Shown: positions 20,562-61,668 of the stretch, piece by piece | How the letters are laid out: each line of letters opens with the position of its first letter | Numbering within the stretch: position 1 is the first letter of the stretch | DNA from: Candidatus Krumholzibacteriota bacterium | GTDB taxonomy: Bacteria > Krumholzibacteriota > Krumholzibacteriia > LZORAL124-64-63 | DNA length: 64,000 nucleotides | Assembly (NCBI GenBank): GCA_022711765.1 | Contig: JAKLEB010000002.1 | Span: 689,726-753,725 of the forward strand | Direction: 5' to 3' | Made by a program: the position numbers and the translations under genes | The notes under the pieces: model-generated | Seen by the model: only the letters and a program-made list of their open reading frames with translations | Databases searched by the model: none | What the model was told of the DNA's origin: nothing

Positions 20562-20564
20562 CGT

Positions 20565-22717: not shown

Positions 22718-22747
22718 CCGAAACCTCCTCGATCGGGCCGGGCTGAT

Positions 22748-29087: not shown

Positions 29088-29126
29088 CGCACCGATATCA
29101 GAGTCGATCGAGTAATCCTCTCCTTC

Positions 29127-29158
29127 CCGGGCCTGGAGAAGCAGTACTCCAGGCCCGG
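29127..29158 (+). terminator. hairpin terminator downstream of the CRTAC1-like gene
   Basis: ccgggcctgga-gaagcagtac-tccaggcccgg is an 11-bp perfect stem 40 nt after the stop codon. Confidence 0.45.
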
Positions 29159-34087: not shown

Positions 34088-34419
34088 CCGGGGCAACGTT
34101 CGCGCTCTCTCGCGGGCGAGCACTGCGACGCCGTCCGGCTCGGCGGCCGAGTCCGTCCTGGCGGCAGGCAGTCGACAGGTGATACTCTGCGAGCGAGGAA
34201 TCCCGACGTTCGCGACGGCGACCTTCGTCCCGCCGGACATCGGCGCGGTTTCGGTCGCCAGGAGCCGGCGCCGCCCGCCGGCGGCGCGCGCTCGTGCGCT
34301 CCCGCCCTCGCGCTGTCAGCGCTGGCCGCAGGTCAGGACGGGATTATGGTGAAGATGCGTCCGGCGCTGGGTCGGCCAACGGCGCACGGGAGGTCCCGAG
34401 GCGGCCTGGAGGTGACGGC

Positions 34420-35739: not shown

Positions 35740-36596
35740 CCATCGGCGGCGCGACCCGCGTCTTCGGACTCGTCGGCCGGCCCATCGCCCACAGCCTCTC
35801 GCCGCGCCTGATGAACGACGCCTTCGCGCGGCTCGGCCTCGACGCGGTGTACGTCGCGTTCCCTGCGGATCCGGCGCGACCGCGGGAGCTGCTCGCGGGC
35901 CTCGATGCGCTCGGCGTCGCCGGGGCCAACGTCACCTACCCGCTCAAGGCCGCCGTGATGCCCGACCTGGTCGTGGTCGCTCCGGCAGCGCGGGCGATCG
36001 GCGCGGTCAACGTGCTGAGCCGCGAGCCCGCCGGCGGCTTCCGCGGCGAGAACACCGACGGCGGCGGCCTGGTCCTGGCCCTGCGCCAGGCCCTCGGCTG
36101 GGAACCCGGCGGCTGCCGCGTCGCAATCGTCGGCGCGGGTGGCGCGGCGCGGGCCGCGGCCCACGGTCTGTGTGATGCCGGCGTGGCGTCGGTCACGTTT
36201 CTTGCGCGGTCGCCGGAGCGAGCGGCGGCCGATCTCGCGAGCCTTCGCGCGGCCCTGCCCGGCCGGCCGCTGGCGGTCGTGGCGCTCGGCGCCGGGGCCG
36301 CGGCCCTGGCGGACGCGGACCTCGTGGTCCAGGCCACGCCGATCGGCCTCGACGGCCCCGGCGCCGCGCTGCTCGTCGATCCCGACGCGGCGCCGCGCGC
36401 CGTCGGCTTCGAGCTCGTGTACGGTGCGCAGCCCACGTCCTTCGCCGCGGCCTGGCGCCGGGCCGGGCGCGTCTGCCTCGACGGTCGCGACCTCCTTGCC
36501 GCGCAGGCGCACCTGACGCTCCGCGTGTGGCTCGGAATGGCGCCCGATCTCGCGGACATGCGGAAAATCATCGCGGACCGGGAGATCCCGGCATGA
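35736..36596 (+). CDS. aroE: shikimate dehydrogenase
   Basis: [17 protein letters not shown]... and NVTYPLK motifs; ATGA overlap with the aroA stop. Confidence 0.8.
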
Positions 36597-38260: not shown

Positions 38261-38703
38261 TCCATGGCCCCAACCTCAACCTGCTCGGCCGTCGCGAGCC
38301 CGCGATCTACGGCTACGACACCCTCGCCGACATCGAAGTGCGCCTGCGGGCGCGCGCCGGCGAGCTCGCGGTCGACCTCGATACCTTCCAGAGCAACCAC
38401 GAGGGCGCGATCGTGGACCGGATCCAGGCGGCCGTGCTCGCCGAGCCGCACGCCGACGGTCTCGTGATCAACCCGGCTGCGTACACGCACACCAGCGTCG
38501 CGATCCGCGACGCGATCGCCGCCGTCGCGCTCCCGGCGTGGGAGGTCCACCTCTCCGACCCCGCGACGCGCGAGGGCTTCCGTCGCGTCTCGTACGTGCG
38601 CGACGTCTGCGTCGGCCACACCGCCGGTCGCGGCGCCGACGGTTACCTCGAAGCGCTCGCGGGTCTCGTCGAGCACCTGCGCGGCCCGGGCGCCCGAACC
38701 TGA
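38245..38703 (+). CDS. aroQ: type II 3-dehydroquinate dehydratase
   Basis: [23 protein letters not shown]... hallmark N-terminus; 152 aa; overlaps the end of aroKB. Confidence 0.85.
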
Positions 38704-38714
38704 AGGAGTCCGCC

Positions 38715-39812
38715 GTGTCCAGCTCGTTCGGTACGCTCTTCCGCGTGACCACCTTCGGCGAGAGCCACGGCGCTGGACTCGGCGCGGTGGTCGACGGCTG
38801 TCCGCCGCGGCTGGCGCTCGCGGCCGCCGACATCCAGGCCGCGCTCGACCGCCGCCGCCCCGGCCAGAGCGACCTCACGACGCCGCGCCAGGAGACCGAC
38901 CGGGTCGAGATCCTCTCGGGCGTCCAGGACGGCGTCACCCTCGGCACGCCGATCGGCCTCATCGTGCGCAACGCCGATCAGCGGCCCGGCGACTACGGGA
39001 ACCTCGACACGGTGCCGCGCCCCAGCCACGCCGACTTCACCTACCAGGCGAAGTATGGTCTGCGCGCCCGCAGCGGCGGCGGCCGGGCCAGCGCGCGCGA
39101 GACGGCGATGCGCGTGGCGGCGGGCGCGATCGCGGCGAAGCTGCTGCGCGTACGGTGGAACGTGGAGATCGTCGCCTGGGTGGACGCGGTCGGCGACGTC
39201 GCGCCCGCGGCGGTCGACCCCGAATCGGTGACCGTCGCCGCGGTCGATGGGAATCCGGTGCGCTGTCCGGACCTCGCGGCGGCCGAGCGATTCACCGCGG
39301 CGATCGTCGCGGCGAAGGCGGACGCGGACTCGGTGGGCGGCGTCGTCGCCTGCGTCGCGCGCGGCGTGCCAGCCGGCTGGGGCGAACCCGTCTTCGGCAA
39401 GTGCGAAGCGCAGCTCGCCGGCGCGATGCTGTCGATCCCGGCGACCAAGGGCTTCGAGGTCGGCAGCGGGTTTGCGGGCGCGCGCCTGCGCGGCAGCGCG
39501 CACAACGACGCATTCGTGGCGCGCGCGGACGGTACTCTCGGCACGGCCACGAATCGCAGTGGCGGCATCCAGGGCGGGATCACCAACAGCGAGCCGATCG
39601 TCTTCAGGATCGCGTTCAAGCCGCCGGCCACGATCGGCCGCGAGCAGGTGACCGCCGACTACGCCGGCCGGCCGGTGACCCTCGCCGCGCGGGGTCGCCA
39701 CGACCCGTGCGTGGTGCCGCGCGCCGTGCCGATCGTCGAGGCGATGGCGGCGCTGGTGCTGGCGGACCTGGCGATGATCCAGGCGGCCCGGGAGGCGGCG
39801 GCGCCGCGGTGA
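38715..39812 (+). CDS. aroC: chorismate synthase
   Basis: [15 protein letters not shown]..., GGRSSARETA and [13 protein letters not shown] motifs; GTG start 6 nt after GAAGGAG. Confidence 0.9.
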
Positions 39813-45788: not shown

Positions 45789-48146
45789 ATGCCCGTCGGC
45801 GCCCCACCGTCCAGCGGCCGCGAAGTCCGGGATCCGGTCTGCGGGATGACCACGACCGAGCCGTCCCGCTGGCTCGCGCAGGAGCACGCCGGCCGAATCC
45901 ACTATTTCTGCAGCGGCGGCTGCCGCGAGAGGTTCCTGCGCGACCCCGAGGCGTACGGGTCCGCGCCGGGGCACGATGCCGCCGGCCCCCGCGCGCCAGA
46001 GCCCGGACCCGCCGCTGCCGGGCGACTCTATACCTGTCCGATGCATCCCGAGGTGCGCCAGCTCGGGCCGGGGTCGTGCCCGAAGTGCGGGATGGCGCTC
46101 GAACCGGTCCTGGCCGAGTCCGACGACGAGGCCGCTGCGGACCCCGAGCTGCACGACTTCGCCCGGCGGTTGCGACTCGCCGCCGCGCTCACCCTGCCGC
46201 TGGTCCTGGTCGCCATGCGCCACATGCTCGGGCTCGGTTCGCTGGCGCACGCGTTGCCGGCGCGGGTGTGGCCCTGGCTCGAACTGCTCCTCGCGACGCC
46301 GGTCGTCGTGTGGGCCGGCTGGGTCCTGCACGCGCGGGCCTGGCGATCGCTGCGGCTCCGCAGCCCGAACATGTTCACGCTGATCGGGCTCGGGACCGGC
46401 GTGGCCTACGCGTACAGCGTGGCCGGCGTCGTCGCCCCCGGGGCGTTCCCCGCGTCGGCGCGCCTGGACGACGGCTCGGTCGGCCTGTACTTCGAGGCTG
46501 CCGCGGTGATCGTCACGCTGGTCCTCCTGGGCCAGGTGTTCGAGCTGCGCGCGCGCGGCCGCACGGGCGCCGCGATCCGGTCGCTATTGCAGCTCGCGCC
46601 GCGGACGGCGCGGCGGATCGGCGGGGACGGCACGGAGTCGGAGGTGGCGCTGTCCGCCATCCAGCCGGGCGATCGACTCCGCGTCCGTCCGGGCGAGAAG
46701 ATCCCGGTCGACGGGGTCGTCCTCGAGGGGAACAGCCGCGTCGACGAATCGATGCTCACGGGCGAACCGGCGCCGGTCGCGAAGTCGACGGCGGACCAGG
46801 TCACCGGCGGCACGGTGAACGGCTCCGGCTCCTTCGTGATGAGGGCGGACCGGGTCGGCGCCGACACCCTGCTCGCGCGGATCGTCCAGATGGTGGCGGA
46901 AGCGCAGCGCAGCCGGGCGCCGATCCAGCGGCTGGCCGACGCGGTGGCCGCGTGGTTCGTGCCGGCGGTGGTCGCGATCGCGGCCGCGGCGTTCGCGGCG
47001 TGGCTGATCTGGGGCCCGCAGCCGCGGCTCGCCCACGCGCTCGTCGCCGCGGTGTCCGTCCTGATCGTCGCCTGTCCGTGCGCGCTCGGCCTCGCGACGC
47101 CGATGTCGATCATGGTCGCCACCGGCCGCGGAGCCCTGGCGGGCGTGCTGTTCCGCAACGCCGAGGCGATCGAGAACCTCAGGCGCGTCGATACGATCGT
47201 CGTCGACAAGACCGGCACCCTCACCGAGGGCAAGCCGCGCCTGGCCGACGTGGTCGTCGCCGAAGGCTGGGACGCGGCCGAGGTGGTGAGCCTGGCGGCG
47301 GCGGTGGAGGTGGGGAGCGAGCACCCGCTCGCCGCCGCGGTCGTCGCCGGCGCGCGCGAGCGGAACGCCGGGCAGGCGGCGGCCGCCCGCGATTTCGCGT
47401 CGTACGCCGGCAAGGGAGTCACCGGCGAGGTCGGCGGGCGGACCGTCCTCGTGGGCACCGCGGACCTGCTCGCCGAGCACGGCGTCGACGGCGGCGCGCT
47501 CGCGTCGCGGGCCGAGGACCTGAGAGCCATGGCCAGCACGGTCGTCCACGTGGCCGTCGACGGCCGGCTCGCGGGTCTGCTCGCGATCGCCGACCCGATC
47601 AAGGCGAGCACGCCCGACGCGCTCGAGCGGCTGCGGGCCCTGGGACTGCGGATCGTGATGGTGACGGGCGACAGCGAGGCGACGGCGCGAGCGGTCGGGT
47701 CGAGGCTCGCGCTGTCGGACGTCGTCGCGGGGGTCCTGCCGGAGCAGAAGGCGGCGATGGTCGCGCGCCTACAGGGCGAGGGCCGCATCGTCGCGATGGC
47801 CGGCGACGGGATCAACGATGCGCCCGCGCTGGCGCGCGCCGACGTGGGGATCGCGATGGGAACGGGGACCGACGTGGCGATCCAGAGCGCTCCGGTGACG
47901 CTCGTGCGGGGAGACCTGCGAGCGATCGCGCGCGCGTACGCACTCAGCCGGGCGACCATGCGCAACATCCGCGAGAACCTCTTCTTCGCGTTCGTCTACA
48001 ACGCGCTCGGCGTACCCGTGGCGGCTGGGGTCCTGTACCCGGCCTTCGGGATCCTGCTGTCGCCGATGATCGCGGCGGCAGCCATGAGTTTCAGCTCCGT
48101 TTCGGTCGTCGCCAACGCCCTGCGGCTGCGCCGCGTCCGGCTGTGA
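45789..48146 (+). CDS. copA: copper-translocating P1B-type ATPase with N-terminal YHS/TRASH-type metal-binding domains
   Basis: DPVCGM...YFCSGGC (YHS), YTCPMHPEV...CPKCGM, CPC transmembrane motif ([12 protein letters not shown]), DKTGTLT phosphorylation site, [10 protein letters not shown]. Confidence 0.85.
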
Positions 48147-48202: not shown

Positions 48203-49285
48203 TTGCCGAGCGGCCTCTCGGTCATCCGATCTCGCGCCGAGTTCGCCCGCCTGCGGCGGGCCTGGAACGAGTGCCTCGCCACGATGCCGGGCGCGCATCT
48301 CTTCCTCACGCACGAGTGGCTCGCGGCGTGGCTCGAGCATCAGGGCCGCGGGGCCGAGTTGTTCGTGCCGGTCGTCGCGGACGGCGGCGCGATCCTGGCG
48401 GCCGCCCCGCTGGTCCGGCGGCGCGGCCGGTACTACGGGCTGCCGGTCGAGGAGATCGTCCTGATCGGCAACCACACCAGCGATCGCGTCCAGTTCCTCG
48501 TCCAGCCCGACCACGAGGATCTCTGCGAGACGCTCTGGCGGGCCATCCTGGCCGAGTGCGGACAGTGGCGGATCGTCCGCCTGGAGCAGGTCCCGGCCAC
48601 GGCGCCCACGGTGACGCGCCGCCCCGTGCGCGGTTGCCGCGTGGGCTGCGAGCCGACCTCGTCGCTGCCCTTCATCGACATCGCCGGCAGCTGGGAGGAC
48701 TTCGAGAAGTCGCTGGCGCCGAAATTCCGGTCCAAGCTCCGCAACAAGGAGAAGACGTTCGCCCACTGGGGGGACTGGACGCTGCGCGTCGTCCGCGGCT
48801 GTGAGACGATCGACCACCTGGATCAGCTCGTCGCCGTCGAGCTGGACAGCGCGAAGGCGGCGGGCGGTTATGCGTTCTTCGCCTCGGCGACCAACGTCGA
48901 GTTCGCGCGCGCCCTCCTGCGCTCCAGCCCGCCGCTCGATCCTCTCCTGTGCGAGCTGGTCATCGGGGACGAGGTCGTCGCCTATACCCTCGGGTTCATC
49001 CACGGCGGGGTCTACTTCGGCTACAACATGGCCTACCGCCGTGGCTACGAGGCGGGCAACTGCGGCAAGTGGCTGATCCACCAGACTTTCAAGTACGCGT
49101 TCGAGCATGGGTTGCGCGGCCTGGACCTGTTGCGCGGCGCCAGCGACGTCAAGCGCAACTGGCGCCCGCGCCTCGAACAGAACTGCCGCCTCGTGGTCTT
49201 TCCCCGCAATCCGCTGTTCCTGCCGCACAAGCTCGCGGTCTTCCACGTCCGGCCGGCCCTCAAGTCCCTCGTGAAAGGGAGGTAG
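48203..49285 (+). CDS. GNAT-fold acetyltransferase, FemAB/BioF2-like/CelD-like family
   Basis: N-terminus ...EFARLRRAWNECLATMPGAHLFLTHEWLAAWLEH and C-terminus GYEAGNCGKWLIHQTFKYAFEHGLRGLDLLRGASDVKRNW match the Acetyltransf_6/CelD-like family. Start codon (TTG 48203) uncertain. Confidence 0.6.
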   Translation: MPSGLSVIRSRAEFARLRRAWNECLATMPGAHLFLTHEWLAAWLEHQGRGAELFVPVVADGGAILAAAPLVRRRGRYYGLPVEEIVLIGNHTSDRVQFLVQPDHEDLCETLWRAILAECGQWRIVRLEQVPATAPTVTRRPVRGCRVGCEPTSSLPFIDIAGSWEDFEKSLAPKFRSKLRNKEKTFAHWGDWTLRVVRGCETIDHLDQLVAVELDSAKAAGGYAFFASATNVEFARALLRSSPPLDPLLCELVIGDEVVAYTLGFIHGGVYFGYNMAYRRGYEAGNCGKWLIHQTFKYAFEHGLRGLDLLRGASDVKRNWRPRLEQNCRLVVFPRNPLFLPHKLAVFHVRPALKSLVKGR

Positions 49286-49402
49286 TCCCGCGGCGCCGCG
49301 CCGGGTCGAACTACGCCTTGCGCTCGTGGACTTCGGCGGACATTATGTCGTGGCTGTCCATCGTCGAGACCGGGTGTCTCCGGGTGGGAATCGAGGCGAC
49401 AG

Positions 49403-50113
49403 ATGCAGATCGGCGTCCGTGAGGCTGCCCGCCTCCTGACCGTTTCCGAGAAGACGATCTACCGGTGGATCAAGGACGGCCGGCTGCCCGCCTACCTGAT
49501 CAACGAGCAGTACCGCTTCAACAAGGCGGAGCTGCTCGAATGGGCCACGGGCCGCAAGATCAACGTGTCGCCCCAGATCTTCGAGGAGCCGCCGGACGCC
49601 GACCGCGTGACGCTCCCCGCGGTCAGCGAGGCGCTCGAGGCCGGTGGCATCCACTATCGCGTCGCCGGCAAGGACACGTCCGCGGTGCTGATGGCGATCG
49701 TGGAATTGATGCGGCTGCCCGACGAGGTCGACCGGACCTTTCTGCACCAGGTCCTGCTCGCCCGGGAGTCGCTCGGCTCGACCGGCGTGGGCGACGGCAT
49801 CGCGATCCCGCACGTTCGCAATCCGATCGTCCTGCACGTCCCGCGGCCGACGGTGACGCTCTGTTTCCTGGAGCGGCCGATCGATTTCGGCGCGATCGAC
49901 GGCAAGCCGGTCAGCACGCTGTTCACGATCGTGAGCCCGGCGGTCCGGGCGCACCTGCATATCCTCTCGCGCCTCGTCTTCATCCTGCGCGACCTGACGC
50001 TGCGCGACCAGCTCGCCCGTCAGGCCTCCCGCGACGAGATCCTGGCCACGGTGCGCCGGGCCGAGGCGAGGGCGGTCACGGAGCCGCCGGCGGCGCCGCG
50101 GGAGGCGCCGTGA
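49403..50113 (+). CDS. putative regulator: N-terminal HTH_17 (excisionase/MerR-type) DNA-binding domain fused to PTS EIIA(Ntr)-type (PTS_EIIA_2) domain
   Basis: LTVSEKTIYRWIKDGRLPAYLINEQYRFNKAELLEWA (HTH), then EIIA-2 fold with active-site His in GDGIAIPHVRNP. Stop overlaps the GTG start of the next gene (GTGA). Confidence 0.75.
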   Translation: MQIGVREAARLLTVSEKTIYRWIKDGRLPAYLINEQYRFNKAELLEWATGRKINVSPQIFEEPPDADRVTLPAVSEALEAGGIHYRVAGKDTSAVLMAIVELMRLPDEVDRTFLHQVLLARESLGSTGVGDGIAIPHVRNPIVLHVPRPTVTLCFLERPIDFGAIDGKPVSTLFTIVSPAVRAHLHILSRLVFILRDLTLRDQLARQASRDEILATVRRAEARAVTEPPAAPREAP

Positions 50114-52083
50114 TCCTGCTGATCGCGTCGCTCGCCCTGCTGCTCGGCGGCGGCGCCGCGGCGCTGGCCGCGTCACGCCGGGATCGGCTGAGGAACGGGA
50201 TCGTGCTCGGCAGCCTGGTCGGCGCCTCGCTCGCGTCGCTGCCCGTGGCCATCGTGACGATCGCGCGCGGCGAATCGCTGGCGCTGCAGTGGCCGTGGAG
50301 CGTACCGCTGGGGTCGTTCGCCCTGGGCCTGGATCCGCTGTCCGCCTTCTTCCTCCTGCCGATCCTGGTGCTGGCACCGCTCGCGGGGATCTACGGCGTC
50401 GGTTACCTGCGCGCGTGGCAGGGCCGCAAGAATCTGGGCGCCTCGTGGTTCTTCTTCAACGTCCTGGTCGCCTGCATGATGCTGGTGGTCGTGGCGCGCA
50501 ACGCCGTGCTCTTCCTGGTCGCCTGGGAGGCCATGGCGCTCGCGTCGTACGCGCTGGTGGTGTTCGAGGACGAGCGAGGCGACGTGCGCGGCGCCGGCCG
50601 CACCTATCTCGTCGCGACGCACCTCGGGACGGGCGCCCTCTTCGTGCTCTTCGTCCTGCTGGGCCAGCCCGCGGGCTCGCTCGACTTCGCCGACCTGGGC
50701 GCCGGCGCGGGATCGCTGTCGCTCCTCTTCGCGCTGGCCGTGATTGGTTTCGGCACCAAGGCCGGGTTCATGCCGCTGCACGTCTGGTTGCCGGAGGCCC
50801 ACCCCGCGTCGCCGAGCCACGTCTCGGCGCTGATGTCCGGCGTGATGATCAAGACCGGCATCTACGGGCTGCTGCGCATCCTCATGGTCCTCGGGGCGCC
50901 GCCGCCGGCCTGGGGCTGGACGATGGTCGCGATCGGCGCGACCTCCGGCGTGCTCGGCGTGCTCTTCGCGCTGGCCCAGCACGACGTCAAGCGGCTGCTC
51001 GCCTATCACAGCGTCGAGAACATCGGCATCATCGCGCTCGGGCTCGGCGTGGGCCTGCTGGGCCGAAGCTACGACCAGCCGGCGATGGCGTACCTCGGGT
51101 TCGCCGGGGCGCTGCTCCACGTCGCGAACCACGCGCTGTTCAAGGGGCTGCTCTTCCTGGGCGCCGGCGCCGTCGCGCACGCCACGCACACGCGCGAGAT
51201 CGATCACCTGGGCGGCCTGCTGAAGCGGATGCCCTGGACCGGAACGACCTTCCTGGCCGGCTCCGCGGCGATCAGCGGGCTGCCGCCGTTCAACGGTTTC
51301 GTGAGCGAGTTCCTCATCTTCCTGGGCGCGCTGACCGGCGCCGTCACGCTCGGCGGCGCCGGCGCCGCGGTCGGGGCGGTCACGACGGGCGCGCTCGGCC
51401 TGATCGGCGGCCTGGCGGCCGCGTGCTTCGCGAAGGCCTTCGGCATCATGTTCCTCGGCGAGCCGCGCAGCCGTCACGCGGCGGATGCGACCGAGGTGGG
51501 CCGGTCGCTGCGCGTGCCGCTCGTCGTGCTGGCCGCGGCGTGCCTCGCGATCGGCCTCGGCGCTCCGTTCGTGGTCGCCGGCCTGGACAGCGTCGTCGTC
51601 GCGGCCGCCGGGTTGCCGCCGCACGACCCGGCCGGCCGAGCGCTGGCGGGACCGCCGCTGCGCATGGTCGCGCTCGGCAGCGCCGTCCTCCTCGCGCTGG
51701 TCGGCGCGCTCGTCCTGGCTCGCCGGGGTCTGCTGGCGAGACGGACCATCACGACCGCCCTGACCTGGGATTGCGGTTACGCGGCGCCCGATCGGCGGAT
51801 GCAGTACACCGCCGCCGGCTTCGCCCAGCCGCTGACCAGCCTGTTCCGGTTCGCCCTTCGGACGCGGCGCGAGGGCGAGCCCGTGCGGGGTCTGTTCCCG
51901 GCGCGAGCGTCGCTCGCGACCTCGACCCCGGATCCGATGCACCGCGAGATCTACGAGCCGGTCTTCGCGGCGGTCGGCCGGCTGTTCGCGAAACGGCGGT
52001 GGGTGCAGGGCGGTCAGACGCAGCTCTACGTCCTGTACATCGTCCTGACGCTCCTGGTGCTCCTCGTCTGGGAGCTCTCGTGA
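50110..52083 (+). CDS. HyfB/HycC/NuoL-like proton-conducting antiporter-type membrane subunit
   Basis: 657 aa polytopic; PF00361-type core (WLPEAHPASPSHVSALMSGVMIKTGIYGLLR...). Translationally coupled at both ends. Confidence 0.8.
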   Translation: MILLIASLALLLGGGAAALAASRRDRLRNGIVLGSLVGASLASLPVAIVTIARGESLALQWPWSVPLGSFALGLDPLSAFFLLPILVLAPLAGIYGVGYLRAWQGRKNLGASWFFFNVLVACMMLVVVARNAVLFLVAWEAMALASYALVVFEDERGDVRGAGRTYLVATHLGTGALFVLFVLLGQPAGSLDFADLGAGAGSLSLLFALAVIGFGTKAGFMPLHVWLPEAHPASPSHVSALMSGVMIKTGIYGLLRILMVLGAPPPAWGWTMVAIGATSGVLGVLFALAQHDVKRLLAYHSVENIGIIALGLGVGLLGRSYDQPAMAYLGFAGALLHVANHALFKGLLFLGAGAVAHATHTREIDHLGGLLKRMPWTGTTFLAGSAAISGLPPFNGFVSEFLIFLGALTGAVTLGGAGAAVGAVTTGALGLIGGLAAACFAKAFGIMFLGEPRSRHAADATEVGRSLRVPLVVLAAACLAIGLGAPFVVAGLDSVVVAAAGLPPHDPAGRALAGPPLRMVALGSAVLLALVGALVLARRGLLARRTITTALTWDCGYAAPDRRMQYTAAGFAQPLTSLFRFALRTRREGEPVRGLFPARASLATSTPDPMHREIYEPVFAAVGRLFAKRRWVQGGQTQLYVLYIVLTLLVLLVWELS

Positions 52084-52085
52084 TC

Positions 52086-53000
52086 ATGGCCATCGCCGCC
52101 GTCATCCACCTGCTGGTCGCGCTGCTCCTGGCGCCGCTGCTGCTCGGCGTCATCAACCGGACCAAGGCCGTCTTCGCCGGACGGCGAGGGCAGCCGCTGC
52201 TGCAGCTCTACGCCGACCTCGCCAAGCTCCTGCGCAAGGGAGCCGTCTACAGCGGCACGACGACCTGGGTGTTCCGGGCGGGACCGCTCGTGACCCTGGC
52301 GGCGGTCACCGTGTCCCTGCTCGTCGTGCCGTTCGCCGGCGTGCGCGCCGTGGGGGCCTTCCCGGGCGACTTCGTGCTCTTTGCCTACCTGCTCGCCGTC
52401 GCCCGCTTCTTCACCGTGATCGCCGCGCTCGACACCGGTTCGAGTTTCGAGGGGATGGGCGCGAGCCGCGAGGTCGCCTTCTCCGCGCTGGCCGAGCCCG
52501 CCCTCCTCGTCGGGCTCGCGGCCCTGGCCAGGCGCGCCGGCGGCGCGTCTCTGTCGGACTGCTACGAGGCGGTGCGGCTCTTCGACTTCGGACCGAACGG
52601 CGGCTTGCCGCTGCTCTTGATCGGCGCAGCCTTCTTCGTCGTCTTCCTGGCGGAGAACGCGCGGATCCCGTTCGACGATCCGAACACGCACCTCGAATTG
52701 ACGATGATCCACGAGGTGATGGTCCTGGACCACGGCGGGCCGGACCTCGCGTTCGTGCAGTACGCGGCGGCGCTGAAGCTGTGGGTGCTCGGCGCCCTGG
52801 TGGTGGGAATCCTGCTGCCGCTGCGCACCGGCTTCGTCGCCCTCGACTTCGGGTTCGGCCTGGCCGCCATGGCGGTGCTGGCCGTGGCGACGGGTTGTGT
52901 CGAATCGACGAAGGCCAGGGTGCGCCTGACGGGGGTGCCCCAGTTGCTGGTGGCCGCGACGGTCCTGGCCGGAGTCGGCTTCGGGCTGACGCTGCGGTAG
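52086..53000 (+). CDS. HyfC/HycD/NuoH-like membrane subunit
   Basis: MAIAAVIHLLVALLLAPLLLGVINRTKAVFAGRRGQPLLQLYADLAKLL closely parallels the HycD/NuoH N-terminus; 304 aa. Confidence 0.8.
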   Translation: MAIAAVIHLLVALLLAPLLLGVINRTKAVFAGRRGQPLLQLYADLAKLLRKGAVYSGTTTWVFRAGPLVTLAAVTVSLLVVPFAGVRAVGAFPGDFVLFAYLLAVARFFTVIAALDTGSSFEGMGASREVAFSALAEPALLVGLAALARRAGGASLSDCYEAVRLFDFGPNGGLPLLLIGAAFFVVFLAENARIPFDDPNTHLELTMIHEVMVLDHGGPDLAFVQYAAALKLWVLGALVVGILLPLRTGFVALDFGFGLAAMAVLAVATGCVESTKARVRLTGVPQLLVAATVLAGVGFGLTLR

Positions 53001-53026: not shown

Positions 53027-53680
53027 ATGGCGGAGATGAACGACTGGATCGACGCGGCGATCGCGCTCGTCGTGCTCGGCAACCTGAGCTTGCTCGGGAC
53101 GAGCCGCCTCGTCGCCTGCATCCGGATCCTGGCGCTGCAGGGCCTCTTGCTGGGCCTGCTTCCCCTCTTCTTCCACGCGGACGACCTCACCCTGCGGGTC
53201 GTCCTCCAGGTCACCGCGAGCACGATCAGCAAGGGCATCGTCTTCCCCTGGCTGCTGACCCGCGCGGTGCGCGGCGCGGACGAGCGGCGCGAGGTCGCGC
53301 CCGTGGTCGGCTACACGCCGTCGCTGTTGATCGGCGGCGCGCTGCTCGGCCTCGCGCTGTGGCTGGGCGGGCGCCTGCCGCTGCCCGGCGACGCCGAATC
53401 GGAATTCCTGGTCGCGGTCGCGCTGAACACGACGATGGTCGGTCTCTTCCTCATCATCGCGCGGCGGATGGCGATCACCCAGGTGCTCGGCTACCTCGCA
53501 ATGGAGAACGGAATCACCACCTTCGGCCTGGTCTTCGCCGAGCGGGAACCGCTCCTGGTGGAGATGGGCATCTTCCTCGACGCGTTCATGGCGGTCTTCG
53601 TCATGGGCCTGATGGTCTACAACATCAACCGGGAGTTCCGTCACCTCGACACCGAACGGCTGTCGAACCTGACGGACTGA
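53027..53680 (+). CDS. HyfE-like small membrane subunit
   Basis: 217 aa, multiple TM helices, position and size equivalent to HyfE; GGGAGG RBS. Confidence 0.6.
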   Translation: MAEMNDWIDAAIALVVLGNLSLLGTSRLVACIRILALQGLLLGLLPLFFHADDLTLRVVLQVTASTISKGIVFPWLLTRAVRGADERREVAPVVGYTPSLLIGGALLGLALWLGGRLPLPGDAESEFLVAVALNTTMVGLFLIIARRMAITQVLGYLAMENGITTFGLVFAEREPLLVEMGIFLDAFMAVFVMGLMVYNINREFRHLDTERLSNLTD

Positions 53681-53695: not shown

Positions 53696-55159
53696 ATGAT
53701 CGTCGCCCTCGTCCTGTTGCCCCTCACGGCCGGCGCGCTGGCGTTCTTCCTGCGCAGCGACGGGCTGCGCCGCGGTCTGCTGGTCGCGACCGCGCTCGCC
53801 CACTCCGGGCTCACGGTCGCGGCGTGGCTGCGGCGGCCGCTGGCCGAGCTGGGCGGCTGGCTGGAACTGGACGACCTCGAGCTGCTCATCCTGGCGGTCA
53901 CCAGCCTGCTCTTCCTGGTCGCGGCCGTCTACGCGGTGGGCTATCTGCGCCGCGAGGGCCGGGACCAGCGGGAGGACTACACGGAGGGTTTCCTCTTCGT
54001 CAACGCGCCGGAGGCCACCTTCACTGGCTGTCTGCTGCTCTTCCTCGGCGCCATGACCCTGGTCATCGGCGCGCAGCACTTCGGCCTGATGTGGGTCGCC
54101 GTCGAGGGCACCACGCTGGCGAGCGCGCCCCTCATCCACTTCCACCGCCATCATCGGTCCCTCGAGGCCGCCTGGAAGTACCTCGTCATCTGTTCGGTCG
54201 GCATCGCGATCGCCCTGCTGGGGAACTTCTTCCTCGTGGTGGCGACCTCCGCGCTGGACGACCAGCTCGGCGGCCTGACCGTGCGGGCCCTGGCCGAACA
54301 CGCCGGCCAGCTCGATCCCACCTGGCTGCGCGCGGCGTTCCTTCTCCTGCTCGTCGGCTACGGCACCAAGATGGGCCTCGCGCCCCTGCACACGTGGCTT
54401 CCCGACGCGCACAGCGAGGCGCCGTCGGTGGTCTCGGCGCTGCTCTCGGGTGCGCTGCTGAACTGCGCGTTCCTGGCGATCCTGCGCCTGCACGGCGTGT
54501 GCGTGGCCGCGGGTCAGGCGGCGTTCAGCGCGAACCTCCTGGTGGGTTTCGGCCTGGTCTCGATGGGCTTCGCCGCGGTCTTCATCGTCGGCCAGCGCGA
54601 CTACAAGCGGATGCTGGCGTACTCCAGCGTCGAGCACATGGGCATTGCCGCCCTCGGCGTGGGGCTCGGCGGCGCCGCGGGCTTCGGCGCGCTGCTCCAC
54701 GTGGTGAACCACTCGTTGACCAAGGGCATGCTGTTCCTGATCGCGGGCAACGTACTCGCGGCGTACCGCACGCGCTCCTCCGCGGAGGTCACCGGCCTGT
54801 TGCGCGCGCTGCCCGCCAGCGGCTTGCTGTGGCTGGCGGGGTTCCTCGCGGTCACCGGGTCGCCGCCGTTCGGACCGTTCCTGAGCGAGTTCACGATCCT
54901 GCGCGGCGGATTGGCGGCGCAGCGACCGGTCATCGCGGTCGTCTACCTCGTGCTCCTGTTGCTGGTGTTCGTCGGCATGGCGATGATCGTGCCCGGCATG
55001 GCCCATGGGGAGACGAACGTCGCCCGGCGGCGGGAGCCGTGGCTGGCCGTCGTGCCGCCGGCCTGCCTGGGGATCGGCGTGCTGATCCTCGGCGTCTACG
55101 TGCCCCGTCCCCTCGCCGACGCCATCACCCGCGCTCTGGGCGCCCTGGGGCTGTCATGA
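53696..55159 (+). CDS. HyfF/NuoM/NuoN-like proton-conducting membrane subunit
   Basis: 487 aa; PF00361 core (GTKMGLAPLHTWLPDAHSEAPSVVSALLSG...). Confidence 0.8.
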   Translation: MIVALVLLPLTAGALAFFLRSDGLRRGLLVATALAHSGLTVAAWLRRPLAELGGWLELDDLELLILAVTSLLFLVAAVYAVGYLRREGRDQREDYTEGFLFVNAPEATFTGCLLLFLGAMTLVIGAQHFGLMWVAVEGTTLASAPLIHFHRHHRSLEAAWKYLVICSVGIAIALLGNFFLVVATSALDDQLGGLTVRALAEHAGQLDPTWLRAAFLLLLVGYGTKMGLAPLHTWLPDAHSEAPSVVSALLSGALLNCAFLAILRLHGVCVAAGQAAFSANLLVGFGLVSMGFAAVFIVGQRDYKRMLAYSSVEHMGIAALGVGLGGAAGFGALLHVVNHSLTKGMLFLIAGNVLAAYRTRSSAEVTGLLRALPASGLLWLAGFLAVTGSPPFGPFLSEFTILRGGLAAQRPVIAVVYLVLLLLVFVGMAMIVPGMAHGETNVARRREPWLAVVPPACLGIGVLILGVYVPRPLADAITRALGALGLS

Positions 55160-56607
55160 GTGCGCATTTGGGCAACGGCGAATCGATCGCCCTTGGTGAC
55201 CTTCCCGTCCTGTCCGTGGCGGCGCTGCGCGACGAGGTGATCGGCGGCGTCGCGCGCGGCCGGCGGCTGGCGGCGTACTTCGGCGCGGGCCGGCGGGGCG
55301 ACGCGCTGCGCGTGGTCGCCGTCGTCGCGGGGGACGACGACGGCGAGTTGCTCGCGTGCGCGGCCGACGTTTCCGGCAGCTACGACGCGCTGACGCCCGA
55401 CTGCCCCCAGGCGCACTGGTTCGAGCGCGAGCTGGCCGAGCAGTGGGGTGTCGAGCCGCGCGGCCACCCGTGGCTCAAACCGATCCGCCGCATCCCGGAC
55501 GCGTTCTTCCGCGTCGACGGCGAGGAGGTCCACGAGGTCGCCGTGGGCCCGGTCCATGCCGGCGTCATCGAACCCGGCCACTTCCGTTTCCAGTGCCACG
55601 GCGAGGAGGTGCTGCATCTCGAGATCGCGCTCGGGTACCAGCACCGCGGCGTCGAGCGCGCGCTCGTCGGTGGACCCGACCGGCGCACGCTGGCGTACAT
55701 GGAGACCCTCGCCGGCGACACCACCATCGGGCACGCCCTGGCCCACGCGCTCGTCAGGGAAGCGCTCGGCGGCGGCGGCGCGCCGCCCCGCGCCCTGGCG
55801 ATCGCCGGCATCGCCCTCGAGCTCGAGCGCCTCGCCAACCACATCGGCGACCTGGGCGCTCTCGCCGGCGACGTCGGGTTCCTTCCGACCGCCGCCTACT
55901 GCGGGCGCATCCGCGGCGACGTGCTCAACGCCACCGCCCAGCTCTGCGGCAACCGCTTCGGCCGCGGTCTCGTGCGCCCCTACGGCCTCGACCACGACGT
56001 CGACGACGCCTTGCGCGAGGATCTCCAGCGCCGGCTCGCCGCCGCCCGCCAGGACTTCGCGGTCGCCGATCGCCTGCTCTGGGACTCCCCGTCGGTGATG
56101 GCCCGATTCGAGGGCACCGGCCTGCTCTCCCTGGACGTGTGCGACGAGATCGGACTCGTCGGCCCCGCCGCCCGCGCCTGCGGCGCCGAGCGCGACGTTC
56201 GCCAGAACCACCCCCACGGCATCTACCGCTTCGTCCACATCCCGATCTGCACCTGGCCGACGGGCGACGTCTTCGGGCGCGCTCACGTCCGCTCGATCGA
56301 GGTCCAGCGGTCGTTCGCCTTCATCCAGGAGCTGCTCGACAGCCTGCCGGGCGGACCGGTCGCGCTGGAGCGCCCGGCGCCGCCGGCGGCCGACCGACTC
56401 GCCGTGGCCCTCGTCGAAGGCTGGCGCGGCGAGATCTGCCACGTCGCGCTCACGGGCGCCGATGGGCGCTTCGCGCGCTACAAGGTCGTCGACCCCTCGT
56501 TCCACAACTGGTTCGGGCTGGCGCTCGCGATGCGCGGTCAGCAGATCTCCGACTTCCCGCTCTGCAACAAGAGCTTCAATCTCAGCTACTGCGGACACGA
56601 CCTATGA
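55156..56607 (+). CDS. NuoC/NuoD-like fused 'large subunit' (HycE/HyfG homologue) lacking the canonical [NiFe]-binding cysteine motifs
   Basis: GPVHAGVIEPGHFRFQCHGEEVLHLEIALGYQHRGVE (NuoD/HycE signature). The L1 motif RxCGxCxxxH is replaced by TLAGDTTIGH, and the C-terminus LCNKSFNLSYCGHDL replaces DPCxxCxxH. ATGA coupling on both sides. Confidence 0.75.
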   Translation: MSAHLGNGESIALGDLPVLSVAALRDEVIGGVARGRRLAAYFGAGRRGDALRVVAVVAGDDDGELLACAADVSGSYDALTPDCPQAHWFERELAEQWGVEPRGHPWLKPIRRIPDAFFRVDGEEVHEVAVGPVHAGVIEPGHFRFQCHGEEVLHLEIALGYQHRGVERALVGGPDRRTLAYMETLAGDTTIGHALAHALVREALGGGGAPPRALAIAGIALELERLANHIGDLGALAGDVGFLPTAAYCGRIRGDVLNATAQLCGNRFGRGLVRPYGLDHDVDDALREDLQRRLAAARQDFAVADRLLWDSPSVMARFEGTGLLSLDVCDEIGLVGPAARACGAERDVRQNHPHGIYRFVHIPICTWPTGDVFGRAHVRSIEVQRSFAFIQELLDSLPGGPVALERPAPPAADRLAVALVEGWRGEICHVALTGADGRFARYKVVDPSFHNWFGLALAMRGQQISDFPLCNKSFNLSYCGHDL

Positions 56608-57380
56608 TCAAGACGACCCTGGCGAGGCTCCAGCAGAAACACCGGACGACCCGGTACCCGGACGGTCCGCCGCCGTCGTTGCCGGATCGCTACCGCGGCC
56701 GGCCGGTCATCGCGGCCGGCGCCTGCCCCGAGGGATGCCGGCAGTGCGCGGACGAATGTCCGACCGGCGCGATCACGCTCGAGGGGAGCGTGGGCCTGGA
56801 CCTCGGGAAGTGCCTGTTCTGCGCGAGGTGCGAGGCGGTCTGCCCGGCGCAGGCGATCCGGTTCGGCCGCGACCATCAGCTCGCCGCGAGCCGGCGCGAG
56901 GACCTGGTGCTCGGCCCCGAGGGCGCCCGCCTCGCGGTCGAGCTGAGCGACCGGCTGCGACGCCTGTTGGGCCGATCCCTGAAGCTGCGCGTGGTGAGCG
57001 CGGGGGGCTGCAACGCTTGCGAGGCCGACACGAACGTCCTGTCGACCGTCGGCTGGGATCTCGGCCGGTTCGGCATCCAGTTCGTCGCGTCGCCGCGCCA
57101 CGCCGACGGGCTCCTGATCACCGGACCGGTGACCGCGGCCATGCGCCCGGCTCTGCGCAAGACGTGGGAGGCGGTGCCCGAGCCCAAGATCGTGATCGCC
57201 GTCGGCGCGTGTGCGATCAGCGGCGGCCCCTTCCTCGGCCATGCCGAGCAGCACGACGGCGCCGCGTCGACGGTGCCGGTCGACCTCCACATCCCGGGCT
57301 GTCCGCCCCACCCGCTGACCATCCTGGACGGCCTGCTCCGGCTGCTCGGCCGGATCCCGGAACCGGAGGCCGGCGGCTGA
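56604..57380 (+). CDS. fused NuoI-like 2x[4Fe-4S] ferredoxin and NuoB/hydrogenase small-subunit-like protein
   Basis: CPEGCRQCADECP and CLFCARCEAVCP (ferredoxin half), then GGCNACEAD...SPRHADGLLITGPVT...VGACAISGGPF...PGCPP (small-subunit cluster-binding cysteines conserved). Confidence 0.75.
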   Translation: MIKTTLARLQQKHRTTRYPDGPPPSLPDRYRGRPVIAAGACPEGCRQCADECPTGAITLEGSVGLDLGKCLFCARCEAVCPAQAIRFGRDHQLAASRREDLVLGPEGARLAVELSDRLRRLLGRSLKLRVVSAGGCNACEADTNVLSTVGWDLGRFGIQFVASPRHADGLLITGPVTAAMRPALRKTWEAVPEPKIVIAVGACAISGGPFLGHAEQHDGAASTVPVDLHIPGCPPHPLTILDGLLRLLGRIPEPEAGG

Positions 57381-58531: not shown

Positions 58532-59923
58532 TCACTTCACGTACGCGAGGCGACAGGTCGCCGGACCCGCCGGGCGATCGACCCGGGCGACGTACGCGCC
58601 GGTCGCGAGCGGCCGCCCCCGGGCGTCGGCCGCATCCCAGTCCACCGTCCCGCGGCCGTCCCGCAGAGGCATCACGAGCGTGTCCACGCGGCGGCCGCGC
58701 AGATCGTAGATCACCGCCTCGGCGTTCGCCCCGACGCCGGGCGCCTCGAGCGCGAGGGTCGTCCGCCCGTTGAACGGGTTCGGACTCGCCGTCAGCCTGG
58801 CGGCCGGCGGCGCAACGGCCGAAGGGACCGCCGTCACGCCGGCGAGGCCGGCCACCGTGGCGGTCGCCGTCACGGCCACCCGCACGTTCCGCGTGGTGAA
58901 GGTCGGGTCGAGGTAGATCACGAGGTCGCCCGTCGTGTGGTAGCGGGGATTGAAGTCGGGGTCGCCCCAGTCCCAGGCTTCCTCGTGGTTGACGGCCGCA
59001 TACCCCTCCTGCCAGAACGAGTAGAAGTCGCCCCACCAGATGTCCTCGGCCTCGTGGAGGACGAAGGGCATGTCGGCGTAGGTGGTCGCCGCGTCGACGA
59101 CCGCGGCCGCGAGGCACTGCGAATGCGCGTTGGTCTCGATCTCGAGGTCGAACGGCACGCCGGGCTCCCACCACCCGACCATGTCGAAGTTCAGGGCGCC
59201 GAGGATGGCGGCGCCCTGCGACGCCTGCAGCTGGACCCACGCGCGGCTGCCGCGCAGGCCCTGCTCCTCGCCGCCGAAGAGCGCGTACTGGACGGTATAG
59301 CCCAGCTGGTGGCCGGCCAGCAGCCGGGCGCAAGTCAGCACCGCGATCGCGCCGCTCGCATTGTCGTCGGCGCCGGGAGTCGCGACCTCCGGCGCCTCGC
59401 TCGTGGCGTCGTAGTGCGCGCAGACCACCACGATCGAATCGGGCTGGACCTCGCCCACCTGGGTGGCGATGACGTTGGGCACGACGATCCCGGAGATCGT
59501 GAAGTCGTGCTGCTCGGTCGCGAGGCCCAGAGCCGCGAACCTGGCCTCGAGCTGGTCGGCCACGACGTGGATGTTCGCGTTCAGGCTGTGACGGACGCCG
59601 AGCCCCACGAGCCACTCGAGGTCGGCCTGGAGATCGCCCCAGACCACCTGGTCGGCGAGGTTCTGCACGCGCGGATCGGGGTCGCGCAGCGGGGTCCAGG
59701 CGCGCGCCGCGGCGCGCGGCGCGGGCACCGGTGCCGGCCGGGCGCCGGGCCACCGGTCGACGAGCTCGGCCGGACCCTCCACCAGCCAGAGGTCGCCGCG
59801 CCGGTCGAGGACGCGGACGCCCGGCGGAGCCGCGGGCGAGGGGACGACGAAGCGGATGTCGTCCGCCAGGGCCGCGGTCGCGACGGCGGTCAGGCAGAGC
59901 ATGGCGGCGATCGAGCGGGGCAT
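58532..59923 (-). CDS. M28-family zinc aminopeptidase with C-terminal FlgD-Ig-like domain, secreted
   Basis: Signal peptide; CAHYDATS, GADDNASG, LFGGEEQGLRGS M28 metal/catalytic motifs; C-terminus ASPNPFNGRTTLALEAP...GAYVARV. Confidence 0.8.
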   Translation of the reverse strand: MPRSIAAMLCLTAVATAALADDIRFVVPSPAAPPGVRVLDRRGDLWLVEGPAELVDRWPGARPAPVPAPRAAARAWTPLRDPDPRVQNLADQVVWGDLQADLEWLVGLGVRHSLNANIHVVADQLEARFAALGLATEQHDFTISGIVVPNVIATQVGEVQPDSIVVVCAHYDATSEAPEVATPGADDNASGAIAVLTCARLLAGHQLGYTVQYALFGGEEQGLRGSRAWVQLQASQGAAILGALNFDMVGWWEPGVPFDLEIETNAHSQCLAAAVVDAATTYADMPFVLHEAEDIWWGDFYSFWQEGYAAVNHEEAWDWGDPDFNPRYHTTGDLVIYLDPTFTTRNVRVAVTATATVAGLAGVTAVPSAVAPPAARLTASPNPFNGRTTLALEAPGVGANAEAVIYDLRGRRVDTLVMPLRDGRGTVDWDAADARGRPLATGAYVARVDRPAGPATCRLAYVK

Positions 59924-60069: not shown

Positions 60070-61668
60070 ATGACTAGCAAGATCCTGATCGCCGCGTGCG
60101 TTCTCTCGCTCCACCTCGCCTCGATCGCCGAGGCCCGCTTCATCATGTTCGACGCCCACTTCGACAATCGCGCCGTCGGCTCGAGCCTCGACCGGCGAGG
60201 CGCCCGTTTCGGCGAGCCGATCGAGGCGGACGGCGACAACCACAGCGAGGTCGTCGTCCAGGACGGCCCCGGCGACCGCTCCGTGCAGATCTGGGACACG
60301 ACCAGCACCGGCAGCGACGAGCTCACCTTCGCCCTGGTCGACGGCCGGGAGGTCGTTGACGGCAAGCTCAACATCTCGCTCGAACTGCAGCTCGACTCGG
60401 TCGACGTCTACAAGGTCGCGATCGAGGGGCCGAATCCCAACGCCATGTGGTTCTTCGACCTCACCCTCGACGCCGCCGGCATCATGTACCTGTCCGACGC
60501 CGACGATTTCCCGCTGGCCGCGTTCGACACCTATGCCGCGGGCGACCTGCTCCTGATCGAGTTGAGCTTCAACCTGAACAACGGGACCTACGATTTCACC
60601 CTCAACGGCGTCCCCGTCCTCACCAACGAGACCCACGGCCTGACGGCCTACGGCCCGGCGCTCATCGTGGTCGGCAACCAGTCCGACGGCAACGCCACCG
60701 GCTCGGTCCGGCTGGACAACCTGTCGGTCGACTGGGCGCCGGGCACCGCCGACGAGCTGCTGACGGCGAATTTCAACGACGAGCCGATCGGCCAGCCCAT
60801 CGGCACCGGCGGCGCGGCGCTCGGCCAGCCGATCGAATATTCCGGCTGCACGCCGACCGTCGAGAACGGCGGCTTCGCCACGCCCGCGCTGCTGATCCAG
60901 GACGAGTCCACGACCACCACGTCGCGCGTGCGATTCGGGTTCCTGAACGACATCGAGGCGACCGGCGATCTCTCGATCTCGTTCCGGCTGTACTTCGAAT
61001 CCCTGGAATCCTACTTCGTCTACCTCCGCGAGGAGGGCACGAGCGCGGCCCAGTTCCTCACCCTCAAATTCACCCCGACAGGCGACGTGCTGTTCGACGA
61101 CGAGACCAGCGCCGGCACGCACTACCACACCGAGTCGTACGTCGCGCAGCAGCCGATCCACGTCGAGCTGGCCTACTACGCGGCTCTCGGCGTGTACAGC
61201 GTCTGGATGGACGGCGAGCGCGTGGTGCACCGCCGCGAGCACGGGGTCGCGGGCCGCGGCATCGGCGGGATCCTCTTCGGCGCGTCCTTCGATGGCAATG
61301 TCGACGGCCAGATGCGGGTGGACGCGATCAACGTCGACGCCCTGGACGGCACGTTGACCCCGGTCCGGGAGGATGACGCGCCCGCGCTCTTGCCGGCCAC
61401 GTTCCGGGCGGCGCCCAACCCGTTCAATCCGGCGACGGCGCTGCGCTTCACGCTGCCGCAGGCGGGTCGGGTCCAGCTCGACATCGTCGATCTGCGCGGC
61501 CGCCGCGTGCGGCAGCTCGTGAGCGAGGCGCTCGCGGCGGGCGAGCACGCGGTCACCTGGCAGGGGACCGATGAGGCCGGGTGCCCGGCGGCCTCCGGCG
61601 TGTACCAGGCGCTGCTGCGTGTCGACGGTCGCCTCCGCGAGCGCGTGCCGCTCACGCTGGTGAAGTAG
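60070..61668 (+). CDS. secreted hypothetical protein (two beta-sandwich-like regions) with C-terminal FlgD-Ig-like domain
   Basis: Signal peptide MTSKILIAACVLSLHLASIAEA; C-terminus AAPNPFNPATALRFTLP...GVYQALL. Confidence 0.65.
   Translation: MTSKILIAACVLSLHLASIAEARFIMFDAHFDNRAVGSSLDRRGARFGEPIEADGDNHSEVVVQDGPGDRSVQIWDTTSTGSDELTFALVDGREVVDGKLNISLELQLDSVDVYKVAIEGPNPNAMWFFDLTLDAAGIMYLSDADDFPLAAFDTYAAGDLLLIELSFNLNNGTYDFTLNGVPVLTNETHGLTAYGPALIVVGNQSDGNATGSVRLDNLSVDWAPGTADELLTANFNDEPIGQPIGTGGAALGQPIEYSGCTPTVENGGFATPALLIQDESTTTTSRVRFGFLNDIEATGDLSISFRLYFESLESYFVYLREEGTSAAQFLTLKFTPTGDVLFDDETSAGTHYHTESYVAQQPIHVELAYYAALGVYSVWMDGERVVHRREHGVAGRGIGGILFGASFDGNVDGQMRVDAINVDALDGTLTPVREDDAPALLPATFRAAPNPFNPATALRFTLPQAGRVQLDIVDLRGRRVRQLVSEALAAGEHAVTWQGTDEAGCPAASGVYQALLRVDGRLRERVPLTLVK

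Follow-up and report, generated by a model that had tools for sequence, protein, structure and literature searches.

What is a protein that public records label 'PTS sugar transporter subunit IIA' or 'nitrogen PTS EIIA component' (PTS, phosphotransferase system; EIIA, enzyme IIA) doing at the head of an operon for an energy-converting hydrogenase-related (Ehr) complex? The question is raised by one gene in a 64,000-nucleotide (nt) stretch of contig JAKLEB010000002.1 from a Candidatus Krumholzibacteriota bacterium; this whole stretch, with a G+C content of 70%, is referred to below as the window. A sequence-only reading had suggested that the encoded protein, in which a helix-turn-helix (HTH) domain precedes the EIIA domain, is a DNA-binding regulator dedicated to a Hyf-like complex. 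We read the HTH-EIIA protein as a dedicated autoregulator of a seven-gene cassette (its own gene and six ehr genes), probably a repressor, controlled by its EIIA domain, most plausibly through phosphorylation of His137, and we put the probability of this reading at roughly 60%. What carries it is the two-domain architecture, the intact active-site triad, a near-universal and reciprocal linkage, translational coupling and conserved repeats that overlap the promoter. The idea of a dedicated DNA-binding regulator is favored by the HTH scores, the operon linkage and an operator-like repeat on the gene's own promoter; the part that falls away is the identity of the complex, which is Ehr and not a Hyf hydrogenase.

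The gene and its parts are located as follows.

49403-50113, plus strand: HTH-EIIA gene, ATG start, 236 residues, proposed regulator of the Ehr operon

49393-49396, plus strand: Shine-Dalgarno sequence GAGG, 6 nt 5' of the ATG, with a GAGGCG block kept in the close clade

49415-49555, plus strand: winged HTH of the HTH_17/excisionase type, residues 5-51 (Pfam, TIGR01764, structure model)

49649-50053, plus strand: PTS_EIIA_2 domain, residues 83-217, with the R121/H137/H184 triad (Pfam, PtsN alignment)

50110-50113, plus strand: GTGA start/stop overlap of 4 nt between the HTH-EIIA gene and ehrA (translational coupling)

Both ends of the gene are well placed. The ATG at 49403 is the earliest start codon past the in-frame upstream stop, homologues align with the protein from Met1, and the open reading frame (ORF) carries a coding-type signal in third-codon-position G+C (GC3). 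At the 3' end, the TGA stop occupies 50111-50113 and the GTG start of ehrA 50110-50112, so the stop is embedded in the start of the HyfB-like gene just as the sequence-only reading had it. The ehrA frame is backed by its GC3 phase, and the GTG is further supported because homologues in many loci align from residues 1-4. The same 4-nt overlap is present in 28 related loci, and in most others the gap is shorter than 50 nt.

The architecture proposed earlier, a MerR/excisionase-type HTH fused to a PTS_EIIA_2 domain that keeps the His of GIAIPHV, is recovered with Pfam (HTH_17 and PTS_EIIA_2, with the motif GIAIPHVR). Failure of the HTH region in profile searches for DNA-binding domains had been named as a result that would tell against a regulator; instead it scores well above threshold both with HTH_17 (PF12728; E = 4.7e-15, 56 bits against a cut-off of 27) and with the excisionase-type NCBIfam profile TIGR01764 (50.9 bits against 28.8). 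In the AlphaFold2 (AF2) model, residues 1-50 have predicted local distance difference test (pLDDT) values of 83-92 and adopt a helix-helix-hairpin-helix fold (helices 5-11, 16-24 and 41-50; strands 31-33 and 36-40). Among solved structures, those nearest to the HTH are RacA (5I41, E = 5e-4), BldC (6AMK/6AMA, E = 4-5e-3) and the phage Xis protein gp37 (4J2N, E = 0.05); all are DNA binders, at marginal E-values. The sequence of the recognition helix, VSEKTIYRWIK, hardly varies among close homologues or wherever the operator motif described below is found.

Two other placements of the HTH were considered and rejected. Canonical MerR membership is disfavored by the PF00376 profile (20.2 bits, below the cut-off of 28.2), by the absence of a MerR-type coiled coil from the AF2 model, in which a linker and the EIIA domain come after the HTH, by a promoter spacer of 17 nt versus 19-20 bp, and by sites that are direct repeats, where MerR proteins bind a palindrome. 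A role in anti-phage defence was raised by the MADS MAD1 HTH, but this match (42 bits against a cut-off of 80) reflects domain-level similarity, and the context gives it no support.

The second domain is equally clear, with PTS_EIIA_2 (PF00359) matching at E = 9.6e-23 and 81.2 bits (cut-off 27) over 134 of 144 profile positions. By sequence it is closest to Escherichia coli PtsN (1A6J, E = 4e-20), and the top fold matches returned by Foldseek for the AF2 model (mean pLDDT 86) are the four PtsN structures 3URR, 1A6J, 4GQX and 2A0J. R121, H137 and H184 align with R57, H73 and H120 of PtsN; the codon for His137, CAC at 49811-49813, lies in the GIAIPHVR motif. All three residues are invariant across 73 close homologues. 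In a wider alignment of 144 sequences, 143 of them diverse representatives from clusters at or below 50% identity, each is kept in 134-135 (~94%).

Downstream of the regulator, the operon continues with six genes.

50110-52083, plus strand: ehrA, HyfB/NuoL-like antiporter subunit, PF00361, 657 residues (profile match)

52080-53000, plus strand: ehrB, NuoH/HyfC-like, PF00146; its GTGA overlaps the ehrA stop

53027-53680, plus strand: ehrC, HyfE-like membrane subunit (profile match)

53696-55159, plus strand: ehrD, HyfF/NuoM-N-like, PF00361 (profile match)

55156-56607, plus strand: ehrL, NuoC+NuoD-like large subunit, with ETLAGDT in place of RxCGxC

56604-57380, plus strand: ehrS, NuoI-like 2x[4Fe-4S] domain fused to a NuoB-like small subunit; final gene of the operon

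Three further 4-nt overlaps lie inside the operon (GTGA at 52080, ATGA at 55156 and ATGA at 56604), and unrelated convergent genes close the unit 3' of ehrS. 'Hyf-like' was a fair description of the subunit content, but the module is not a Hyf hydrogenase. The two motifs of group 4 [NiFe]-hydrogenases, L1 (RxCGxCxxxH) and L2 (DPCxxC), are absent from EhrL: its TLAGDTTIGH aligns with RVCGICGFAH of HycE (7Z0S) and RMCGICSFSH of MbhL (6CFW), and its C-terminus is FPLCNKSFNLSYCGHDL, not the hydrogenase DPCxxC. Both TLAGDTTIGH and the C-terminal replacement are invariant in 18 EhrL homologues. Because EhrL is without the N-terminal CxxC nickel-iron ligands, the module is assigned to the Ehr type rather than to the bona fide hydrogenases, and its content agrees with this: two antiporter-like subunits and one each of the NuoH-like, HyfE-like, NuoCD-like and NuoIB-like kinds, with the NiFe ligands missing. 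In Geobacter sulfurreducens, ehrA-1/B/C/D/L/S (GSU0739-0745) encode these subunits in this order. Published accounts of Ehr give this subunit set, report NuoCD and NuoIB as fused and note that the CxxC ligands are lost (PMC6349859 and supplement; PMC10284858), while the function of Ehr was still called unknown in papers of 2019-2023 (PMC6349859, PMC10284858); Geobacter Ehr subunits are more abundant on formate (PMC7894505). As a side observation, seven cysteines of EhrL (C83, C147, C249, C264, C428, C470 and C479) are invariant in the 18 homologues, which come from several phyla, and so, at 100%, is the C-terminal DFPLCNKSFNLSYCGHDL, with the canonical NiFe CxxC pairs absent. This pattern suggests that EhrL may have a different, conserved cofactor or active site.

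How tightly is the regulator tied to this module? A search over 5.8 billion proteins gave more than 7,200 matches, and the best 120, which were inspected, all combine HTH and EIIA at 64-85% identity; they come from Krumholzibacteria, Latescibacterota, Omnitrophota and Planctomycetota. Among 1.84 billion cluster representatives, 404 clusters match at E <= 1e-30, and the best 150 of these are almost all full-length two-domain proteins of ~230 residues. A scan with one genome per species found a close relative in at least 596 species genomes; 80 loci were kept, covering at least 12 phylum-level groups and including one isolate, Fontivita pretiosa. When loci with at least 1.5 kb of DNA downstream of the HTH-EIIA gene are searched with the six window proteins (tblastn), the same six ehr genes follow directly, in the same order and on the same strand, in 76 of 77. 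The reverse search agrees: five loci seeded with EhrL homologues (59-86% identity) have upstream DNA, and in all five an HTH_17+PTS_EIIA_2 gene stands immediately before the first PF00361 gene. Divergent members of the family, with identities of 39-51%, likewise stand first in an Ehr operon, and the genes outside the seven-gene block differ at every locus compared, L090 and L091 included. Since the linkage is near-universal while the flanking genes change, the seven genes form a self-contained cassette. The sequence-only reading had allowed that the protein might belong to a common family without any Hyf-like association; these results speak for the opposite.

Cassettes vary in ways that can be recorded here. 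About a third have two tandem HyfB/NuoL-like genes (L010, L012, L018, L022, L026 and others; also the P0313 locus), so that ehrB starts ~4.1 kb rather than ~2.05 kb after the regulator, an arrangement that recalls ehrA-1 and ehrA-2 of Geobacter. At L088, where the regulator has Gln at the position of His137, a HypF hydrogenase-maturation gene (4146-6383) lies directly upstream of the cassette, which is odd for a complex without NiFe ligands and may be coincidence.

A candidate operator lies upstream of the HTH-EIIA gene. In the window, it and a possible promoter are placed as follows.

49327-49360, no strand assigned: candidate operator with four 6-bp half-sites (family-wide motif, clade alignment)

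49327-49332: half-site TGGACT

49337-49342: half-site CGGACA

49346-49351: half-site TGTCGT

49355-49360: half-site TGTCCA

49318-49346, plus strand: possible weak sigma-70-type promoter, TTGCGC-17 nt-CATTAT, overlapping the operator

The half-sites form two tandem pairs inverted to each other, with a central GACAT-T-ATGTC palindrome. Across the family, k-mer analysis of the 250 nt upstream of the HTH-EIIA gene in 79 loci picks out ATGTCCA/TGGACAT, present in 36 of the 79 regions and in at most 12 in shuffled sequences, with occurrences clustered by position. In 66 of 81 loci the 150 nt upstream contain the tandem pair TGTCCA-N4-TGTCCA, with up to 2 mismatches allowed; its density there (82 matches in 11.9 kb) is 147-fold that in the remainder of the same loci (63 in 1.34 Mb). 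Typical positions relative to the start codon are -49 for the plus-strand pair and -77 for the inverted pair. When 44 loci are anchored on the downstream pair, the consensus is TTGACAtt..tGG.C........tA.aaTGTCCA.aGtTGTCCA, which reads as a -35 element TTGACA, a 17-nt spacer and a -10 element whose final T would be the first base of the repeat. Of 41 anchored loci, 28 have a TTGACA with at most one mismatch that precedes the first TGTCCA by 27-29 nt. The four half-sites, at 10-bp spacing, thus cover the core promoter. In the closest clade (the window, L090, L001 and L002), intergenic invariance is confined to GGAC.T-N4-GGACA, TGTC and the ribosome-binding site. The motif also seems to go with the recognition helix, in a small sample: it is present at L081, L084 and L086, which keep the SEKTIYRW helix, and absent at L083, L087, L088 and L089, where the helix has diverged. 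To our reading, the TGTCCA-N4-TGTCCA candidate operator is new in this analysis.

A sigma-54 connection was considered because of the likeness to PtsN and was set aside, as the conserved promoter is sigma-70-like and the window has no Sigma54 domain; a sigma-54 activator near one divergent locus is not conserved elsewhere.

These features can be put together as a mechanism. The winged HTH would bind the 6-bp TGTCCA/TGGACA half-sites, which form two inverted pairs of tandem repeats at 10-bp spacing, and in doing so would cover its own core promoter from -35 to about +10. A repressor is most likely because protein bound over the core promoter would block RNA polymerase. The EIIA(Ntr)-type domain would act as a switch that sets DNA affinity or oligomerisation, and its likeliest trigger would be a regulatory PTS, whose HPr/NPr-type protein would phosphorylate His137, a plausible form of control. 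Synthesis of the ion-translocating Ehr complex would then track the energy, carbon or nitrogen state of the cell. What we infer here is that the protein binds the repeats, whether it represses or activates, and that the signal is phosphorylation.

Several observations weigh against this autoregulatory reading, some of which are given with the alternatives on which they bear. In the window itself the element is compressed and degenerate (TGGACT-tcgg-CGGACA-ttta-TGTCGT-ggc-TGTCCA), the operator pattern has 4 matches where 2.06 are expected, which is not significant, and a promoter and terminator scan of 49100-50300 gave nothing at a 9-of-12 promoter threshold. With the window count not significant, the operator signal is one of positional conservation across loci; with the consensus scan empty, the window promoter is assigned tentatively. 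Binding of the protein to the TGTCCA repeats is itself predicted from their co-conservation. Finally, one locus breaks the linkage: the gene at 10001-10666 of L063, from a Spirochaetaceae metagenome-assembled genome, has no adjacent Ehr operon. An EamA transporter, a phosphorylase and others follow it, and a TGTCCA-type repeat lies 47 nt upstream; this may be a relocated regulator or a locus that lost its operon. A further repeat in the window, TGTCCA-N4-TGTACG with 2 mismatches (29458-29473, minus strand), is located in the intergenic region 29088-29735 upstream of the gene at 29736; it is probably not a second target, because the window match count is at chance level.

The best-surviving alternative, though a doubtful one, accepts the DNA-binding regulator but takes the EIIA domain as unphosphorylated: a ligand or protein sensor or a dimerisation module, with the His structural or used in binding. 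It draws on the failure to reach the PtsN equivalog cut-offs (69.9 versus 138.7 bits for TIGR01419 and 62.3 versus 221 for NF008145) and on a domain search of the main ORFs of the window in which no phosphoenolpyruvate-utilizer/enzyme I (EI), HPr or HPr-kinase domain was found, consistent with the earlier remark that the window holds no PTS EI or HPr genes. It draws also on the 9 of 144 aligned sequences (~6%) in which H137 is replaced by Q, E, N, Y or A; one of the nine, P0383, looks frameshifted around residue 137, and the two variants examined both still head an Ehr operon. Since such variants are retained at the head of the operon, phosphorylation cannot be universal. Against an unphosphorylated domain stand the ~94% conservation of the Arg, the phospho-His and the second His across clusters at or below 50% identity and the PtsN-like GIAIPH loop, and occasional loss of the phospho-acceptor is common in otherwise phosphorylated families. 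Moreover, regulatory PTS proteins occur in several of the host phyla, regulatory components without sugar transporters having been reported in Planctomycetes and neighbouring phyla (PMC2405797).

Rather unlikely, in our view, is that the protein serves mainly or additionally as a regulatory partner of Ehr, its EIIA domain docking on a subunit so as to tune ion or electron transfer or to be sequestered at the membrane. Docking of this kind would resemble that of PtsN on TrkA or KdpD and of EIIA-Glc on permeases, and sequestration that of Mlc by PtsG or of PutA-type trigger factors. Translational coupling of the first gene to a membrane subunit means that the protein is made in step with the complex. 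It is also the most conserved protein of the cassette (median 65% identity versus 46-64% for the Ehr subunits, in loci that had been chosen by similarity to the HTH-EIIA protein itself); such exceptional conservation across phyla, to which the EIIA domain and the HTH contribute equally, would not be usual in a transcription factor and may reflect an additional protein partner. The His-less variants, kept in the same position, and fold matches of the EIIA domain to the cytoplasmic regulatory domain of SLC4 ion exchangers point the same way. However, repressors are often the first gene of their own operon, as with ArsR and CadC, and docking is not needed to explain a conserved operator. Two apparent fusions of regulator and HyfB, P0300 (836 residues) and P0373 (813 residues), contain long Arg/Pro/Ala-rich out-of-frame stretches and are for that reason taken as frameshifted gene calls; they provide no Rosetta-stone evidence for a partnership.

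The two roles could also be combined in a 'trigger' regulator, produced in stoichiometric amounts with Ehr, whose EIIA domain docks on the complex, with the activity or assembly of the complex, or PTS phosphorylation, deciding between the membrane and the TGTCCA operator. We consider this unlikely. If true, it would be the first EIIA(Ntr) domain wired directly to DNA and would give a complex-I-like ion pump its own feedback sensor, all within one mobile seven-gene cassette kept in over a dozen phyla.

It is quite improbable that the TGTCCA repeats are unrelated to the protein, being the site of another factor or an RNA or DNA hairpin, and that the HTH has a role other than DNA binding. Inverted repeat pairs could in principle pair. 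However, the repeats travel with the gene across 12 or more phylum-level groups while all other neighbours change, and the motif is missing where the recognition helix has diverged, in the small sample given above. The outer upstream half-site is consistently TTGACA at 17 nt from a TAnaaT box, which makes it -35-like rather than a stem partner, and the 10-bp tandem spacing fits a protein on one face of the DNA. A search of the intergenic region for inverted repeats found none at the settings used, and Rfam returned for 49000-50300 one chance-level match (E = 1), so that no riboswitch or leader is assigned.

An ordinary PtsN/EIIA paralogue next to a Hyf-like operon by chance, as the public annotation would have it, is refuted by the near-universal, reciprocal linkage, the N-terminal HTH in 120 of 120 best matches and the scores below the PtsN equivalog cut-offs.

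Returning to the autoregulator, how does it compare with known systems? PtsN (E. coli 1A6J; Burkholderia 3URR and 4GQX; Neisseria 2A0J) has the same fold, GxGIAIPH loop and Arg/His/His triad, and is likewise a regulatory rather than a transport protein. It is, however, a single domain of ~150-160 residues without an N-terminal winged HTH, encoded in an rpoN-hpf-ptsN-rapZ-ptsO neighbourhood, whereas the HTH-EIIA protein has 236 residues, falls short of the equivalog cut-offs and is encoded between a GNAT gene and ehrA; its gene is not beside rpoN, hprK or ptsO, and no Sigma54 or HPr domain was found in the window. PtsN contacts TrkA, KdpD and PhoR. Its output is thus protein-protein contact, where that of the HTH-EIIA protein would be DNA binding.

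On the DNA-binding side, BldC, Xis and RacA are single-domain proteins with no sensor, while the HTH-EIIA protein carries EIIA. BldC binds direct repeats as head-to-tail multimers (PMC5859096), a mode that fits the 10-bp tandem half-sites. The inversion of the two tandem pairs suggests that the EIIA domain joins two DNA-bound pairs.

Analogous in logic are MtlR, LicR and ManR of Firmicutes, which also have a DNA-binding domain and a type-2 EIIA(Mtl)-like domain in one polypeptide and whose activity is set by PTS phosphorylation; in regulators of this type, duplicated PRD domains lie between the HTH and the EII-like domains. They differ in HTH class, in size (~650 versus ~230 residues) and in target, which is a sugar operon and not a respiratory-type complex; the HTH-EIIA hosts are Gram-negative and candidate phyla, mostly without sugar PTS transporters. 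Pfam finds no PRD or EIIB(Gat) domain in the HTH-EIIA protein, which places it outside the PRD regulators. HyfR and FhlA (E. coli hyf and hyc) are similarly dedicated to a group-4 hydrogenase-type complex, hyfR being encoded with the hyf operon, but they are unrelated to the HTH-EIIA protein in sequence, domain content and promoter type; both are sigma-54 enhancer-binding proteins that sense formate. In the available literature we found no description of the HTH-EIIA architecture, or of a PTS/EIIA-type gene with Ehr. The protein appears to work like a PTS-controlled transcription factor in which an HTH of the BldC/Xis type is joined to an EIIA(Ntr)-type domain.

The rest of the window gives some view of the organism. 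Upstream of the regulator, the gene of a copper-type P-type ATPase that carries YHS and HMBD metal-binding domains at its N-terminus (45789-48146) is followed by a GNAT (Acetyltransf_6) gene ending at 49285. Starting from the GTG at 48143, the GNAT gene would have a 4-nt overlap with the end of the ATPase gene, an unusual pairing. On the minus strand, 18190-25323 encodes cytochrome bd oxidase subunits II and I, an arginine-deiminase-family protein, DUF6599, a poly-ferredoxin with multiple 4Fe-4S domains and DUF362; given the cytochrome bd genes, the organism has an oxygen-reducing quinol oxidase alongside Ehr. A shikimate cluster lies at 34294-39812 (EPSP synthase, shikimate dehydrogenase, a fused shikimate kinase/3-dehydroquinate synthase and chorismate synthase). 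Five large proteins end in a FlgD_ig domain (11347-13047, 25773-29087, 29736-33269, 58532-59923 and 60070-61668), two with a below-threshold Por_Secre_tail and three with FG-GAP, BACON or M28 peptidase domains; they resemble cargo of type IX secretion, which fits an organism of the Fibrobacteres-Chlorobi-Bacteroidetes (FCB) group.

For the family as a whole, the combination of a regulator present almost without exception and a predicted operator offers an experimental handle on the inducer of Ehr, on the signal received by the EIIA domain and on the purpose of Ehr itself. For thousands of entries that currently carry the label 'PTS sugar transporter subunit IIA', HTH-EIIA regulator of Ehr operons would be the better description. 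The autoregulator proposed here would also extend EIIA(Ntr) signalling from protein-protein contacts to direct transcriptional control, in phyla that have a regulatory but no sugar PTS.

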